IMG/VR virus record: IMGVR_UViG_2609459824_000008
DNA: 4,564 nucleotides
Reading direction: 5' to 3' (one strand)
Source: a virus
Taxonomy: Duplodnaviria > Heunggongvirae > Uroviricota > Caudoviricetes
How positions within the stretch are numbered: the first letter of the stretch is position 1; each line of letters begins with the position of its first letter. Under the pieces are notes generated by a model. That model did no database searches and had not been told where the DNA came from. It saw nothing but the letters and a program-made list of their open reading frames with translations. The position numbers and the translations under genes were made by a program. Positions 1 to 4,564 of the stretch are shown in pieces.

Positions 1-222
1 TTTACCCCGATGGTCTTCAACGAGATGCCACGATGCCTCATCACTGTTGAAAACAGCCACAAAGCCAGCAGGAATATCTGGTGGTGCAATATCGGTACTG
101 TTTGCTGGCAGACCTGTATGAGGCGGAATATATGCGTCACCTTCACCAATAAATTCATTAGTTCCGGCCAGCAGATTATAAATTTTTATGGTCCGTGCTT
201 GTTCACTCATTCTGAATGCCAT
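1..222 (-). CDS. tfa: Tail fibre assembly protein Tfa, N-terminal 74 codons; the 3' end of the gene lies beyond the window start
   Basis: Minus-strand ATG at 222-220. Hand translation of the reverse complement of 1-222 gives [74 protein letters not shown], open to the window edge. This matches the lambda Tfa N-terminus as I remember it almost residue for residue. The start overlaps the stf stop as TAATG. It is absent from the supplied ORF track because it has no in-window stop. Confidence 0.9.
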
Positions 223-3200
223 TATGCAAGCCTCACAATATAGTTAAATGCGATGTTTTTGACGGTGTTTTCCGCGTTACCCGCAGCGTTAACGGTGATG
301 GTGTGTCCATGTGAACCAATCGCAACGGAGTGCGTATGCGCACCAATACCTACAGTATGTGCATGTGCGCCAGAACTTGCTGCAGTACCAGACAGCGAGT
401 GGGTATGAGCACCTGCTGACTGTGTCTGAATACGTTGATAATACGATCTATAGGAAGAAGTCTCCGGGCTTACTTGATACTGTGAATTCTGGACATAAGT
501 GAACCCACCGCCATCATAAAATGCTAACGCAGAACCGCCGCCTCCTGGCCAACGAATACCATTACCATGAGTATGAACACCGGCAGACCCCGTAGAGCCA
601 CTCAGACTGTGCGTATGCGCCCCGGTGTTATTCGTGGATTTAGTGCCGTAATCAAACGACGATGTGGTTTTCGTCCCCAAATCCGTACTGGATGCGCTGG
701 CGCTGTGGGTGTGCGATTTAATGCCGTCCTGTTCCTGAGACAATACGGCCCGGCCACTGGCGGGGTTGCCCTTGATTGTCCAGCCGCGCATATCTGGAAT
801 AACACCTGAAGGATAGGCAATAGCCAGTTTCGGATATGCTGCCTTATCAAACGTCTGCCCCTGCATGATTGCATAACCTGCAGGTGGTGTATCTGATGGC
901 CACGGCAGCGGAACACCTGGCGGAAACGCTTCAATATTTGCCGAGCCGTCAAATTTTACGCCGTTAATTGTCCTTGCAGTTTGCAATTTGGTTGCTGTGC
1001 TTGCATTACCCGATAAAGATCCAGTGATACCACCACTCGCGTTTAATTTAGTTGCAATTGTAACATTGCCAGTATGGTTACTAATTATAAACGGCCTTAA
1101 GCTATTGTGCGTACCAAGACTGTTACCCGAATCTGTCAACATAAAATATGTGTTTGATCCATCATTTCGGATAAAGAATCCATAGTTGCCATAGGCAATA
1201 CGCAGACCATTTGCTGACCTTGAAATAACCTCACCAGCAGCAGTTAAACCACCTGAAAGAGTCCCTCCAGTTAATGCCAATGCCCCAATATTTGAAGGGG
1301 TCAATGTGATATTTGCACTACCATCAAATGACACACCGTTAATCGTTCTGGCTGCCTGAAGTTTCGTGGCGGTCGCAGCATTACCTGTAGTGTTTTGATT
1401 ACCGGTAGCGTTGACTCCAGGCAAGTTGATATCTGCCGATCCATCAAATGCCACGCCCCCAATCTTACGTGCTGTCTTGATCTTGGTCGCAGTATCTGCG
1501 TTTCCGGTCAAATTACCAGTAACACTACCACCAACTTTTAGTCCATTACCGATGGACACCAACCCTGATCTTAAGTTTATAGAGAATGGTCTTAATGAAC
1601 CGATGTCTCCATTTTCCCCCTCCCCTTCATTAGTCGGAATAAGATGAAGATGATCTTCGGAACGCCTAAAAATAAGGCCAAAGGCTTGGTTGAATATTCG
1701 AAGAGCATTTATCGTGCTGATTTTTAACTGCCCTCCCATTGTGTCGCCAGTTTTTTGAACTGAACTATCTTTAACAGTTTTAACTGCCTTTGGCGTTGCC
1801 GCCAGCTTTTCACTGGTGCTGTTTGTTGCACTGCTGAGCTGTACTATCCCCTTTTTCGTCGTGCTCGCATCCTCCAGCGCCACGGCGGATGCAATATCCT
1901 CTGCCCGTTTTGCTGCTGTCTCGGCGCGCGTTGCCGCGGATTCAGCAGCAACTTTGCTCTGAGATGCAGCCGTCGCACTGCCTGCCGCCTCTGATGCTTT
2001 CGTTGTTGCTGTCGTGGCACTACCTTTCGCTGCTGACGCTTGTCTGGTCGCCTCATCTTTTGAAGCAGACGCAGATGATGCCGATGACGCCGCTGAACTG
2101 GCTGACGATGCGGCTGCCGCCTTAGAGGAAGCAGCATTGTCTGCTGAAGTCTTTGCATTTGTTTCAGAGGTTTTTGCTGCAGAAGCAGACCTCGCTGCTG
2201 CAGTGGCTTGCTCAGTGGCTTTGCCAGCCTTCGTTGTGGCTGTTGAAGCGGATGATGCGGCGCTTTCTGCCGATTTTCCGGCGGCGGTGGCACTGGCTGA
2301 GGCCTGCCCGGCACTTGTTGACGCGGCACTGGCAGATAATGCAGCCGCTGTTTTTGAACCTGCCGCAGCTGAGGCGCTCTGTCCCGCTGCTGTTTCAGAA
2401 GACTTAGCGTTCGTCTCGGACGTTTTTGCCGCCTTCGCGGAATTTCCTGCCGCCGTTGCCGAGGAAGCTGCGCTGCTGGCGCTCGAGGCTGCGCTCGTTT
2501 CTGATGATTTTGCCGCCTCTTTTGAAGCTGACGCATCCCGGGCTGAGGTGGCAGCTTCTGACGCTTTCGTGGTCGCGGTGGATGCAGAAGTGGCTGCTGA
2601 TTGTTGTGACGCTGCCGCATTCGTTTCTGACGTTTTCGCCGCAGCGGCACTGGTGGCCGCCGCGCTTTTTGAGGACTCTGCAGCGGCAGCACTTTTTTCC
2701 GCTTCAGTGGCCTTTGTTGATGCCGTTCCTGCGCTGGAAGACGCTGACTGAGCCGACGACGCGGCCTGTCCGGCTGACGTGCTGGCTGCGCGTGCTGAGC
2801 CTGCAGCATCAGTCGCATGGGTTGCCGCCTCACGGGCTGATGTGCCGGCATCGCTGGCTGACTTCTTCGCGGCTGCCGTGTTCTGTGCCACCGCGGACGC
2901 GTTACGCGCCACCTCTTCCACCATCAGTTCAAAACGGCGCAGAGCCTCAGGACGGGCATCATCCTCTGTCATGGCACCGAGAAAATCATTCAGCGTACCG
3001 GGTTGAGAATCTTCATACACGGTAATGGTCCCGGCATGTGATGGCGGGAATCCCTCCACCAACAGACTGACGCTGTACTGACCATACTCGACGTCCATTG
3101 TGTAACGCCCGGCTTCATCCGGGTTTTCTGAGGCCACTGTGTTCACCACCACCGTGGTGCTGTTGCGCCTGGCCTTTAGCTGAATGGTGCAGTTTTGTAT

Positions 3201-3248
3201 CGGCTTACCTGCGCCATCTTTCAGTACACCTGAAATCCGTACTGCCAT
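222..3248 (-). CDS. stf: Side tail fibre protein Stf, intact 1008 aa: lambda-like N-terminal domain, Ala/Ser/Thr-rich shaft, tail-fibre repeat modules, His-x-His C-terminal tip
   Basis: Single uninterrupted ORF in the track. N-terminus [36 protein letters not shown] and C-terminus ...[40 protein letters not shown] match lambda Stf and E. coli prophage StfR-type fibres from memory. Minus-strand ATG at 3248-3246 is preceded by a G-rich Shine-Dalgarno-like run (GGGGGG, plus coordinates 3252-3257). Stop TAA at 224-222. Gene order lom-stf-tfa is as in lambda. Confidence 0.95.
303..713 (-). other. C-terminal tip region of Stf carrying seven His-x-His motifs (predicted metal-binding trimeric needle, as in T4 gp37 and lambda Stf)
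   Basis: HxH pairs at residues 846/848, 878/880, 892/894, 948/950, 962/964, 971/973 and 980/982 (SHTHS, GAHTHS, VHTHG, GAHTHS, AHAHT, AHTHS, SHGHT). On the plus strand these appear as recurring gtg/atg-rich blocks, for example gtgcgtatgcgc at 330-341 and 609-620. Confidence 0.7.
927..1010 (-). repeat. Tail-fibre repeat unit 3 within stf ([28 protein letters not shown], residues 747-774)
   Basis: Same 28-aa motif. DNA 946-1010 (gccgtcaaattttacgccgttaattgtccttgcagtttgcaatttggttgctgtgcttgcattacc) aligns by eye with 1321-1385. Confidence 0.8.
1302..1385 (-). repeat. Tail-fibre repeat unit 2 within stf ([28 protein letters not shown], residues 622-649)
   Basis: Same 28-aa motif. The DNA copy begins exactly 120 nt from unit 1 (1321 vs 1441, both starting ccatcaaatg). 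Confidence 0.8.
1422..1505 (-). repeat. Tail-fibre repeat unit 1 within stf ([28 protein letters not shown], residues 582-609)
   Basis: 28-aa motif G-N-A-x-T-A-T-K-[IL]-x-x-A-R-x-I-x-G-V-x-F-D-G-S-A-x-I present three times in Stf. The plus-strand DNA 1441-1505 (ccatcaaatgccacgcccccaatcttacgtgctgtc...) is visibly similar to 1321-1385. Confidence 0.8.
1869..2891 (-). repeat. Low-complexity Ala/Ser/Thr/Lys-rich shaft-coding region of stf (about residues 120-460) with recurring AAKTSETNA-like motifs
   Basis: The translated Stf is dominated by A, S, T, K, E over about 340 residues. KTSETNA occurs three times (residues ~205-211, ~275-281, ~359-365). The GCN/TCN/ACN codon periodicity explains the long shadow ORFs in other frames and on the plus strand (2014..2751 +, 1844..2851 -). 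Confidence 0.8.
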
Positions 3249-3257
3249 ATTCCCCCC

Positions 3258-3285
3258 ACAAAAAAGCCCGCCTGAACCGGCGGGC
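3258..3285 (-). terminator. Rho-independent terminator between lom and stf (minus strand)
   Basis: Minus-strand sequence GCCCGCC-GGTTCA-GGCGGGC followed by TTTTTTGT. The 7-bp GC-rich stem is at plus 3266-3272 / 3279-3285 with a 6-nt loop; the U-tract corresponds to plus 3258-3265. It lies downstream of the lom stop (3313-3315) and ends about 10 nt before the stf start codon. Confidence 0.65.
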
Positions 3286-3312
3286 TGTCATAACACTGTG
3301 TTACCTGGCTAA

Positions 3313-3912
3313 TCAGAATTTATAACCGACACCAACGATGAAACTGTTGGTACGCCAGTCACCGCTGCCGGAGCCTTCATAAGCAATATCAATGGCCACG
3401 GATTCGGTCGGGTTAAACTGCACGCCAGCTCCCCACGCCAGAGACGTGTTGCTGTGGCGACCGTCATCACTTCCGGTCAGCACGTCGTGCGTTTTCCCCT
3501 TGTTGTCAGTTACGCGGAGATAATCCCCGGAGAAAGTCGACACACGGCTGTAAGCCACACCCGCCATCGCATACGCGCTGAACCATTCATTCACGCGCAC
3601 AGACGGCCCCGCCATCACGCTGAACCAGCGGTTACGAACGGAATCTTCATGCCAGCGGGTATCGCTGTAACGGGTAAGCTGGCGATTCTTGTCTCCTGCA
3701 TAGCTGAATGACGTCACCATCCCCAGTGTGTCCGTAAACTCATAACGGTATTTCACGTTAATCCCGTTCAGATCATCGCTGCCGGGAACGTTCGTCGAGG
3801 CATGAAGATACCCCGCGCTCAGCGTGGACTGATGTTCAGATGCCCATGCAGGCGCACCGGATACGGCCAGACAAATGGCTGCGGACAAAATTGCTGCACA
3901 AACTTTACGCAT
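3313..3912 (-). CDS. lom: Lom outer-membrane beta-barrel protein (Ail/Lom family), 199 aa with N-terminal signal peptide
   Basis: Complete [42 protein letters not shown]...FIVGVGYKF, which matches lambda Lom from memory. It has a signal-peptide-like N-terminus with an AWA-SE cleavage context and a C-terminal aromatic residue (YKF) typical of outer-membrane barrels. Shine-Dalgarno GAGAGG (plus 3918-3923) sits 5 nt upstream of the ATG at 3912-3910; stop TGA at 3315-3313. Confidence 0.93.
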
Positions 3913-3933
3913 AATTACCTCTCGCTTTTCTGC

Positions 3934-3960
3934 AATAAAAAAGGCGTCATTCCTGACGCC
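3934..3960 (-). terminator. Rho-independent terminator between J and lom (minus strand), possibly weakly bidirectional
   Basis: Minus-strand sequence GGCGTCA-GGAA-TGACGCC followed by TTTTTTATTG. The stem is at plus 3943-3949 / 3954-3960 with loop 3950-3953; the U-tract is plus 3934-3942. It lies 23 nt downstream of the J stop. On the plus strand the stem is followed by ctttattgg, which is T-rich enough that weak opposite-strand activity is possible. Confidence 0.6.
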
Positions 3961-3982: not shown

Positions 3983-4564
3983 TCAACGAATACTGATGCC
4001 GGAAGCGGCTTTTTTGGTCACAATCACCGTACAGTCGGTGATATTGCCTGCCCCCTGATTGCCTTTCTGGAAAATCTTAAACTCCAGAGTGACGCTTCCC
4101 CTGCCACTCGGCATATCAATAACCGCACTGTAGCTACCGGGAATGGCCCCTTTAGTTTCTCTGGATGCGATTAATACGCCGTTTTTGCGAACTTCAAAAC
4201 CATAACCCGTGTATCTTGTACCTCCCGGGTTATTACCACTTCCCGGATCGCTATACGCTATTCCGTTAAAGATAATGGGCGGAATAATAATTTGACGGTC
4301 AAAGTTATGATCATCGCTGATGGTGACTGTAACCGTCCCGTTTGGTGTTTCCGTATTACCCCACGTACCAGCCTGTTTCGGGAATGATTTGGATACAGCT
4401 TTAACGAAGTCACCTCTGACCTGAGTCGCCTCCAGCATGCCCTTAATCGTACAGTTTTCATTTACCGTGACATTGTTGAGCGTCCCGGCGTTCGCATTCA
4501 CACTGCCACTGATATCCGCATTTTTAGCGGTCAGCTTTCCGTCCGGTGTCAGGGAAAATGCCGG
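3983..4564 (-). CDS. J: Tail tip / host specificity protein J, C-terminal 193 codons; the 5' end of the gene lies beyond the window end
   Basis: The reading frame is open from the window edge (4564) to the TGA stop at 3985-3983. Hand translation upstream of the track ORF gives ...PAFSLTPDGKLTAKNADISGS-VNANAGTLNNVTVNENCTIKG..., matching the lambda gpJ C-terminal region (GKLTAKNADISGSVNANAGTL) from memory. The track's M at 4501 is an internal GTG (Val), not the true start. Confidence 0.9.
   Translation of the reverse strand, partial: PAFSLTPDGKLTAKNADISGSVNANAGTLNNVTVNENCTIKGMLEATQVRGDFVKAVSKSFPKQAGTWGNTETPNGTVTVTISDDHNFDRQIIIPPIIFNGIAYSDPGSGNNPGGTRYTGYGFEVRKNGVLIASRETKGAIPGSYSAVIDMPSGRGSVTLEFKIFQKGNQGAGNITDCTVIVTKKAASGISIR

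Follow-up and report, generated by a model that had tools for sequence, protein, structure and literature searches.

The side tail fibre (Stf) of Ur-lambda has a described architecture, in which residues 102-393 form a proximal coiled coil, and it binds OmpC (PMC12617516). In the tip of T4 gp37, seven di-His motifs bind iron along a six-stranded needle, and the chain reverses in a small head that contacts the receptor (PMC12609058). In the literature, the exchange of modular tail-fibre segments among lambda, T4, P2, P1 and Mu goes back to about 1989-1994, judging by the references cited in PMC3945230, and experimental recombinants between lambda stf and the stfR gene of the Rac prophage have been described (PMC3945230). 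Functional Stf chimeras (lambda-P2, -K1F, -K5 and -KL106) have been made by fusion at lambda residues R393 and S528 (PMC11338833). Here we consider the side tail fibre gene, stf, carried by IMG/VR record IMGVR_UViG_2609459824_000008, a 4,564-nucleotide stretch of caudoviral DNA. This stretch, which we call the window, is the entire contig JNPR01000092.1 (4564 bp) of a draft assembly of Escherichia/Shigella type (GCA_000703825.1).

In the window, stf is complete at 222..3248 on the minus strand, with an ATG start, 1008 codons and a stop, and no internal stop codon. The original prediction had described the same uninterrupted 1008-codon frame, which we correct only as to its strand. It had set this intact copy against laboratory lambda, where stf is split into orf401 and orf314; both are indeed annotated in NC_001416, and by joining the orf-401 and orf-314 frames we reconstructed the 774-residue Ur-lambda Stf (UniProt P03764) used for comparison throughout. 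The lambda frameshift is a mutation of the laboratory strain, and wild stf genes are normally intact, so the contrast between intact and frameshifted copies is not meaningful here. In lambda PaPa the frameshift lies two codons past R393, in sequence that the window allele does not contain. The suggestion that an intact copy means a functional fibre is plausible, although intactness alone is unremarkable; what speaks for function is the ratio of nonsynonymous to synonymous substitution (dN/dS), which is 0.11-0.25 in the alignable parts of the gene. Purifying selection on stf is evident where comparison is possible; the value for the last 59 codons against lambda was discarded as unreliable because lambda has a nine-residue insertion there.

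We consider it likely that this gene is the stf of a lambdoid prophage of E. coli or Shigella, encoding a trimeric fibre that is mosaic on two time scales and that includes a recent crossover in its shaft.

Mosaic structure of stf

Compared with lambda at the nucleotide level, the part of stf encoding residues 1-303 is collinear and 85.9% identical, residues 304-404 fall in an insertion, residues 405-490 are 76.6% identical, residues 491-773 have no detectable homology, residues 774-892 are 76% identical, residues 893-949 have no homology, and residues 950-1008 together with tfa are 80-94% identical. The resemblance to lambda, expected in the first ~125 and last ~230 residues, is thus wider than had been stated. 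Sharp breakpoints in identity coincide at common module boundaries whether the comparison is with lambda, with K-12 StfR, with phage PhiR26_1 or with further Stf proteins of E. coli prophages, and in a block-wise identity table the closest relative changes from block to block of the gene. At the nucleotide level, breakpoints were located against lambda, PhiR26_1, ev099, B1-56, 13P477T and SCU-313. These breakpoints exclude uniform identity to any one known stf along the full length. The foreign parts proper are the medial cassette (residues 499-773) and the head tip (residues 893-949), while most of the shaft is homologous to that of lambda and simply longer. The expected mosaic middle was accordingly found in the medial cassette, with the head tip in addition, but not in the bulk of the shaft, which differs from that of lambda by a gain of 15 heptads. 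Relative to lambda, the older exchanges would have swapped whole cassettes at two points, the hinge (lambda R393) and the entrance to the collar (lambda S528), and would also have exchanged the head tip and lengthened the shaft by its 15 heptads.

Evidence for a recent exchange comes from comparison with two kinds of close relative. The first are prophage Stf proteins of 1008 residues from E. coli and Shigella sonnei (WP_169062210.1 of SCU-313 and WP_126123377.1 of 203740), annotated as 'prophage tail fiber N-terminal domain-containing protein'. They share the length and architecture of the window protein and its flanking lom and tfa genes, and are 98% identical to it overall. Residues 283-1008 are identical apart from a K828N change in the window protein, whereas residues 1-282 differ at 12-30 positions in each database member, or about 10% at the nucleotide level. 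Along the DNA, the window has one mismatch to SCU-313 in nucleotides 1-2400, and then diverges by about 8-13% over nucleotides 2472-3400. The second relative is stfR of strain B1-56, which is 100% identical at the nucleotide level to the window over stf codons 1-403 and lom. Against B1-56 the window has no mismatch over nucleotides 2041-3946 and five in the J end, about 10% divergence over nucleotides 1782-2040, and no homology below nucleotide 1779.

At the 117 sites that distinguish SCU-313 from B1-56, the first 31 have the SCU-313 base and the next 86 have the B1-56 base, with no exceptions (Fisher p=5e-29). The last site of SCU-313 type is nucleotide 2040 and the first of B1-56 type is nucleotide 2472; between them, at 2041..2471 (minus strand), lie 431 nucleotides that are identical in the window, B1-56 stfR and SCU-313 stf. 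This pattern therefore indicates one crossover in nucleotides 2040-2472, within stf codons 259-403 and inside the heptad shaft. The recent exchange would have been a single homologous crossover in the shaft, with J, lom and the 5' part of stf supplied by a prophage of B1-56/StfR type (0 mismatches over 1.9 kb) and the remainder by a distal stf-tfa cassette that hardly varies among some 420 E. coli genomes and has 1 mismatch to the window over 2.4 kb.

Similar joins appear to have been made more than once. Among about 80 database proteins of 1008 or 1009 residues, most have 1-8 differences from the window protein in residues 283-1008 (the closest have 1-2, K828N included), and all have 12-30 differences in residues 1-282, bar three outliers with about 175; several distinct proximal alleles are represented. 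Different proximal alleles are thus joined to one distal cassette, from which we conclude that natural crossovers in the shaft are recurrent. Variation among these proteins is patchy within residues 283-403.

The modules also differ in how widely they are found. We searched 5426 complete E. coli genomes and 50,697 phage records. At least 80% of the whole window is matched in 422 of the 5426 genomes and the full-length medial cassette is present in 423, while 431 of all the records with any match to the cassette are at least 99% identical to it. We found the head-tip segment in 719 of the E. coli genomes; it is carried on other fibres as well, such as the 1035-residue Stf of FDAARGOS_1297. Since the tip is found in 719 genomes and the full-length cassette in 423, the two assort independently. 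Modular recombination between fibre genes, as the original prediction had proposed, is shown directly by the breakpoints at module boundaries, the two-parent pattern of 31 and 86 sites, and these unequal distributions. A bolder reading is that the contig captures a fresh host-range swap, still free of divergence on either side, in which a near-invariant distal stf-tfa cassette is sweeping by homologous crossover through lambdoid prophages that differ by about 10%, with the heptad shaft as a register-preserving adaptor; we offer this tentatively, and judge it somewhat less probable than an even chance.

Base composition changes along the gene, as had been noticed: G+C content is 0.58-0.63 in the shaft vs 0.41-0.50 distally. 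In the shaft, G+C at second codon positions (GC2) is 0.79 and at third positions (GC3) 0.46, so the richness of the shaft in G+C is a second-position effect of its amino acid content, and we rejected the shift by itself as proof of a foreign origin of the shaft. GC3 nevertheless differs between blocks as well: it is 0.60 for the N-terminal domain and 0.54 for the collar, and it reaches its lowest values in the two blocks that lack homology to lambda, the medial cassette (0.35) and the head tip (0.32).

We considered an invertible segment and dropped this explanation, as the window has no inverted repeats of at least 16 nucleotides. Nor, in the closest complete genomes, SCU-313 and 203740, do the 3 kb downstream of tfa include an annotated invertase (the window itself ends inside tfa), and so nothing here places the gene with the invertase-switched fibre genes of the Mu gin, P1 cin, e14 pin or Rac pinR type.

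Prophage decay, assembly and uniform descent as alternatives

Several observations weigh against a recently recombined fibre gene in a working prophage. At 4.5 kb, the window is a single draft-assembly contig, cut off within J at one end and within tfa at the other. None of the 5426 complete E. coli genomes has the exact junction, the nearest reaching 96.9% over nucleotides 1600-2800, and in a search of 5.8 billion clusters no protein among the best-scoring full-length hits was more than 98.2% identical. A look-up of the exact sequence found no entry in the cluster collection, although the exact protein was located on the source contig. The recombinant is seen in this contig only, which is reported for two samples that are perhaps not independent. 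The medial cassette is found at more than 65% amino acid identity in none of the 50,697 phage records, cultured phages included, and the head tip in only two of those records, both prophage-derived. Lastly, the K828N change (codon 828, window 765-767, minus strand) is private to the window and falls in an otherwise invariant TIKGKP motif of the collar; lambda, T4 gp37 and all of the approximately 80 close relatives have lysine at this position. K828N may reflect an error in sequencing or a substitution that is mildly deleterious.

The alternative that survives best is that stf, though intact, persists as a remnant within a defective prophage; it would not be built into virions and would only provide infecting phages with a store of fibre modules. 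Many lambdoid prophages of E. coli are defective; in SCU-313, the closest complete genome, the gpJ gene next to stf is annotated as frameshifted, and the Rac prophage of K-12 has a full-length stfR beside a lomR disrupted by IS5. The K828N change would fit as well, and only 4.5 kb of sequence is available to judge the prophage by. The gene itself, however, does not look like a relic, with its 1008 codons free of lesions, a tfa start coupled to the stf stop, and a dN/dS of 0.11-0.25. The J C-terminus and lom of the window also have open frames and match their counterparts in B1-56, whose J is annotated as intact, at 99-100% identity. We think decay rather unlikely.

Less probable again, and in our opinion unlikely, is that the two-parent pattern is an artefact in which co-resident prophages of B1-56/StfR type and SCU-313 type were joined by the assembler across their 431 identical nucleotides; the older mosaic would be real even so. 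E. coli genomes hold a median of three places that match the window, and up to 17, the window is a whole draft contig whose ends lie in the repeated genes J and tfa, and each flank is all but identical to its 'parent', as a chimera would give; the missing junction and the lack of an exact protein match elsewhere point the same way. Yet the contig is broken at other repeats but runs unbroken through the shared 431 nucleotides; had that stretch been present in two copies, an assembler that breaks contigs at repeats would have done so here as well. Complete genomes, moreover, join many proximal alleles to the one distal cassette with patchy variation in residues 283-403, so natural crossovers in this interval must be frequent. 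Experiments have also yielded recombinants between lambda stf and prophage stfR (PMC3945230), and the contig has been reported for two samples. The proposal that there was no recombination, the gene being inherited as a unit with composition shifts that reflect only amino acid content (GCN-rich alanine codons in the shaft), gains something from a shaft G+C explained by GC2 of 0.79 and not by GC3 of 0.46, but is refuted by the sharp identity breakpoints, the discordant nearest relatives of the blocks, the 31/86 site pattern, GC3 values that range from 0.32 to 0.60 between blocks, and the different distributions of tip and cassette across genomes.

Domains of the fibre and neighbouring genes

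Four Pfam families were found in Stf (PF08400 at residues 1-134, PF21446 at 620-722, PF07484 at 778-825, and the fibre repeat PF03335), while a search of NCBIfam matched no family. The N-terminal tail-attachment domain, of the lambda gpStfN type, comprises residues 1-134 (2847..3248, minus strand). It matches PF08400 over its full length (1-134 of 134, E=2.4e-71), as the docking domain of a lambda-type side tail fibre does, and is 89% identical to lambda Stf in amino acid sequence. The N-terminal chain of lambda Stf in the tail complex PDB 9e7m aligns end to end with residues 1-94 (E=2e-50).

The shaft follows at residues 135-465 (1854..2846, minus strand). It is rich in Ala, Ser and Thr, is homologous to the proximal coiled coil of lambda, and is predicted to form a trimeric coiled coil. 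Its composition over residues 135-470 (38% Ala, 23% Ser, 12% Thr and 7% Lys) agrees with the ~340-residue Ala/Ser/Thr/Lys shaft that had been noted. The periodicity is strictly seven residues and unbroken over residues 130-470, or about 48 heptads. Identity autocorrelation is about 0.4 at lags of 7, 14 and so on to 56, vs about 0.18 elsewhere, and alanine recurs with a period of 3.5 residues. The unbroken heptads and the alanine period together point to an alanine-zipper coiled coil of about 48 heptads. With its heptads and its collinear homology to lambda, the protein thus has the long proximal coiled-coil shaft of lambda-type side tail fibres.

In the alignment to the reconstructed Ur-lambda Stf, residues 304-408 (2025..2339, minus strand) are an extra shaft segment absent from lambda, of 105 residues or exactly 15 heptads. 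The distance from anchor to anchor is 382 residues in the window Stf vs 277 in lambda. We measured shaft lengths with fuzzy anchors (stf residues 84-466, window 1851-2999) in comparison with 120 homologous proteins. Six of the 11 distinct sizes of length difference are exact multiples of seven (-112, -105, -49, -42, -28 and -7; p=0.002). The others are -1, -22, -23, -34 and -43; all of these are at most one residue away from a multiple of seven except -23, which is within two. Insertion and deletion in steps of seven residues is therefore a tendency and no absolute rule.

The GCN-rich shaft also contains stop-free frames other than stf, at 2014-2751 (plus strand, 245 residues) and 1844-2851 (minus strand, 335 residues). 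One such frame was called as a gene in public gene calls (1814-2551 in their numbering), a situation analogous to lambda 'orf206b'. These frames are almost certainly spurious.

A conserved hinge or linker motif at residues 466-498 (1755..1853, minus strand) ends at the equivalent of lambda R393. The motif is common to lambda Stf and to residues 82-150 of the Mu fibre protein S (PDB 5yvq/8ju3), with Stf residues 432-499 in the alignment.

The medial cassette, residues 499-773 (930..1754, minus strand), consists of 275 residues that take the place of lambda residues 394-528 and contain two diverged beta domains resembling T4 gp34. By index mapping its boundaries, at Stf residues 498/499 and 773/774, are the equivalents of lambda R393 and S528. 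Residues 620-722 match the Gp34_trimer family (PF21446, E=1e-26), which places this region in the gp34 family; the structures of T4 gp34 are matched with E=2e-17 (4uxe, residues 557-753) and E=2e-15 (5nxf), and that of the Mu fibre protein S (5yvq) with E=3e-30 (residues 670-751). The second gp34-like copy, residues 500-612, was detected only as a paralogue of the first: local alignment of residues 500-612 with 666-772 reveals an internal duplication (z=25 against shuffles). Each copy is followed by a repeat of the form GNAxTATKL...FDGSAxI, and a third repeat lies between the copies, so that the motif of about 27 residues, GNAxTATKLxxARxIxGVxFDGSAxI, is present three times. A first self-BLASTP of the medial region gave no match below E=1e-3, and the duplication emerged with explicit local alignments and shuffles. 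The duplicated repeat modules described earlier thus exist in the protein, but not in the DNA, where stf has no direct repeat of at least 30 nucleotides and only a trivial 12-nucleotide tandem repeat. As no such DNA repeat is left, the internal duplications must be old.

The cassette has no nucleotide match to lambda, PhiR26_1, ev099 or B1-56. Among phage records, its best matches are Escherichia phage CMS-2020a (107.6 kb, 64.8% amino acid identity), which we take to be an SSU5-like phage-plasmid, and then phage 9g. On plasmids, 127 places match parts of the cassette; one that we sampled, NZ_CP090337.1, is a plasmid of about 100 kb that matches at 83% over 205 nucleotides in a feature annotated as 'tail fiber protein'. 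Phage-plasmids may share the pool from which such modules are drawn.

The distal tip begins with the collar domain and the outgoing half of the needle, residues 774-892 (573..929, minus strand), with PF07484 (Collar) at residues 778-825 and HxH motifs 1-3 at residues 846, 878 and 892. It continues with the putative head, a hypervariable segment presumed to contact the receptor, at residues 893-949 (402..572, minus strand), between the third and fourth HxH motifs of the 2xgf alignment. In the same alignment, residues 950-1008 (225..401, minus strand) are the returning half of the needle and the conserved C-terminus, with HxH motifs 4-7 at residues 948, 962, 971 and 980; motif 4 begins at residue 948, on the block boundary. 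The T4 gp37 tip (2xgf) aligns to Stf residues 743-1008 with E=6e-79, and each of the seven HxH motifs stands opposite a T4 HxH motif. A collar followed by a needle with HxH motifs on its outgoing and returning strands is the arrangement of a gp37-type tip.

Residues 893-949 fall at the position of the gp37 head, although the alignment is gapped there and has little identity. Column identity of the head segment is 21-26% to lambda, K-12 StfR, B1-56 and PhiR26_1, and 95-100% to FDAARGOS_1297 and SCU-313, while residues 950-1008 are 92-100% identical to all relatives. The head segment differs from both of the OmpC-binding tips, those of lambda and T4.

From these homologies we infer a trimeric structure, iron binding, expression and assembly. 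Three chains would form a long homotrimeric fibre. The N-terminal domain (residues 1 to about 100) would dock on the tail tip and join the collar around it, as in Ur-lambda, and the alanine-zipper coiled coil of about 48 heptads (about 50 nm, some 15 nm longer than that of lambda) would be a spacer projecting the distal part. The hinge motif and the two gp34-like beta domains would make a jointed rod, and the gp37-type needle would present the head to a receptor in the outer membrane. The fibre would allow adsorption that is fast and reversible, ahead of the binding of J to its own receptor, and Tfa, from the overlapping downstream gene, would be the assembly chaperone that helps the tip fold. 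That Stf trimers on the virion would speed adsorption is suggested by homology to Ur-lambda (PMC12617516).

On the minus strand of the window, the gene order is the 3' end of J, lom, stf and tfa, which is the canonical order of the lambda late operon. The 5' part of tfa, its first 74 codons, is at 1..222 (minus strand), truncated at the contig end and assigned to PF28596 (Caudo_TAP_N) in public gene calls. Its ATG overlaps the stop codon of stf (TAATG), and residues 1-74 of Tfa are 98.6% identical to lambda Tfa in amino acid sequence. The contig ends fall inside tfa (codon 74) and J, where co-resident prophages have common sequence, a pattern typical of repeat-induced breaks in short-read assembly. 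In SCU-313 and FDAARGOS_1297, the region 3' of tfa has a gene for an S-adenosylmethionine-dependent methyltransferase and remnants of a second tfa and of a DUF4376 gene. Both prophages adjoin an OmpW gene annotated as partial or incomplete, near trpA-yciEFG.

Between lom and stf, a pattern scan found a terminator-like GC-rich hairpin with a T-run at 3265..3286 (minus strand), 17 nucleotides upstream of the stf ATG; its stem has eight base pairs, seven of them GC, and its tail is TTTTTGTGGG. Given this hairpin ahead of stf, expression of the gene presumably depends on antiterminated late transcription. The lom gene at 3313..3912 (minus strand) encodes a full-length outer-membrane beta-barrel of the Ail/Lom type (PF06316, E=2e-121); it is 44% identical to lambda Lom in amino acid sequence, and most of its length has no nucleotide match to lambda.

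The last 193 codons of J, encoding the C-terminal receptor-binding domain of the central tail fibre, are at 3983..4564 (minus strand; PF12421, Ig_GpJ_C, E=5e-27), truncated at the contig end. Amino acid identity of this part is 47% to lambda J, 51% to SCU-313 J and 99% to B1-56 J, and nucleotide homology to SCU-313 disappears at nucleotides 4021-4440. We conclude that the tip of the central fibre has been swapped as a module too, and that it probably differs in how it uses lambda's receptor.

Comparison with known fibres

The window shares with Ur-lambda the J-lom-stf-tfa locus, and in Stf the N-terminal domain, the hinge motif, the collar, the HxH needle and the C-terminus. The heptad coiled-coil shaft is also shared, at a lower identity (82% of amino acids in residues 135-282 and 78% in residues 404-490), but is 105 residues, or 15 heptads, longer in the window. 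The 135 lambda residues 394-528 are replaced by the unrelated gp34-like cassette of 275 residues, and the two head tips, at 23% column identity, are unrelated. The needle has seven HxH motifs in the window protein and eight in lambda. The window lacks two segments that are extra in lambda, SFDYGTKTTG (10 residues, outgoing strand) and IGAHQHPVV (9 residues, returning strand); since both are lacking, its needle is one layer shorter.

StfR of the K-12 Rac prophage (b1372, 1120 residues) and the B1-56 stfR product (WP_115209014.1, 1133 residues) are 92-100% identical to the window Stf in the N-terminal domain, the hinge and the shaft, including the 15-heptad segment. Their medial region, however, is longer and unlike that of the window (nucleotides 906-1778 of the window have no nucleotide homology there), and their head tip is unrelated (25-26%).

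The relationship to T4 gp34 (PF21446; 4UXE, 5NXF) and to the Mu fibre protein S (5YVQ) is one of distant sequence similarity only, with Stf residues 557-753 aligned to gp34 (E=2e-17) and residues 670-751 and the hinge, residues 432-499, aligned to S. Unlike either, the window protein has two tandem diverged copies between a coiled coil and a gp37-type tip. With the tip of T4 gp37 (residues 785-1026, PDB 2XGF) it shares the collar, the six-stranded needle, the seven HxH motifs and the C-terminal end, along with the need for a downstream chaperone, which is gp38 in T4 and would be Tfa for the window Stf. The head segment between HxH motifs 3 and 4 is longer than in gp37 and is not conserved, the remainder of gp37 is unrelated, and the window fibre would sit on a siphovirus tail by way of its lambda-type N-terminal domain.

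The natural module boundaries of this gene coincide with the R393 and S528 junctions that engineers use to retarget lambda particles, making it a clean and well-resolved example of fibre modularity. Because the medial cassette and the head tip are rare in phage records and common in E. coli prophages, they could be mined as ready-made putative receptor-binding modules, a use of modest practical value. As far as sequence can test them, all the defining features of the lambda Stf/StfR family are present, and the protein is 98% identical to many automatically annotated E. coli and Shigella proteins. The window stf is thus a new, recombinant allele of that family with a tip of the T4 gp37 type; the phenomenon that it illustrates is a textbook one, and no concept is changed by it.

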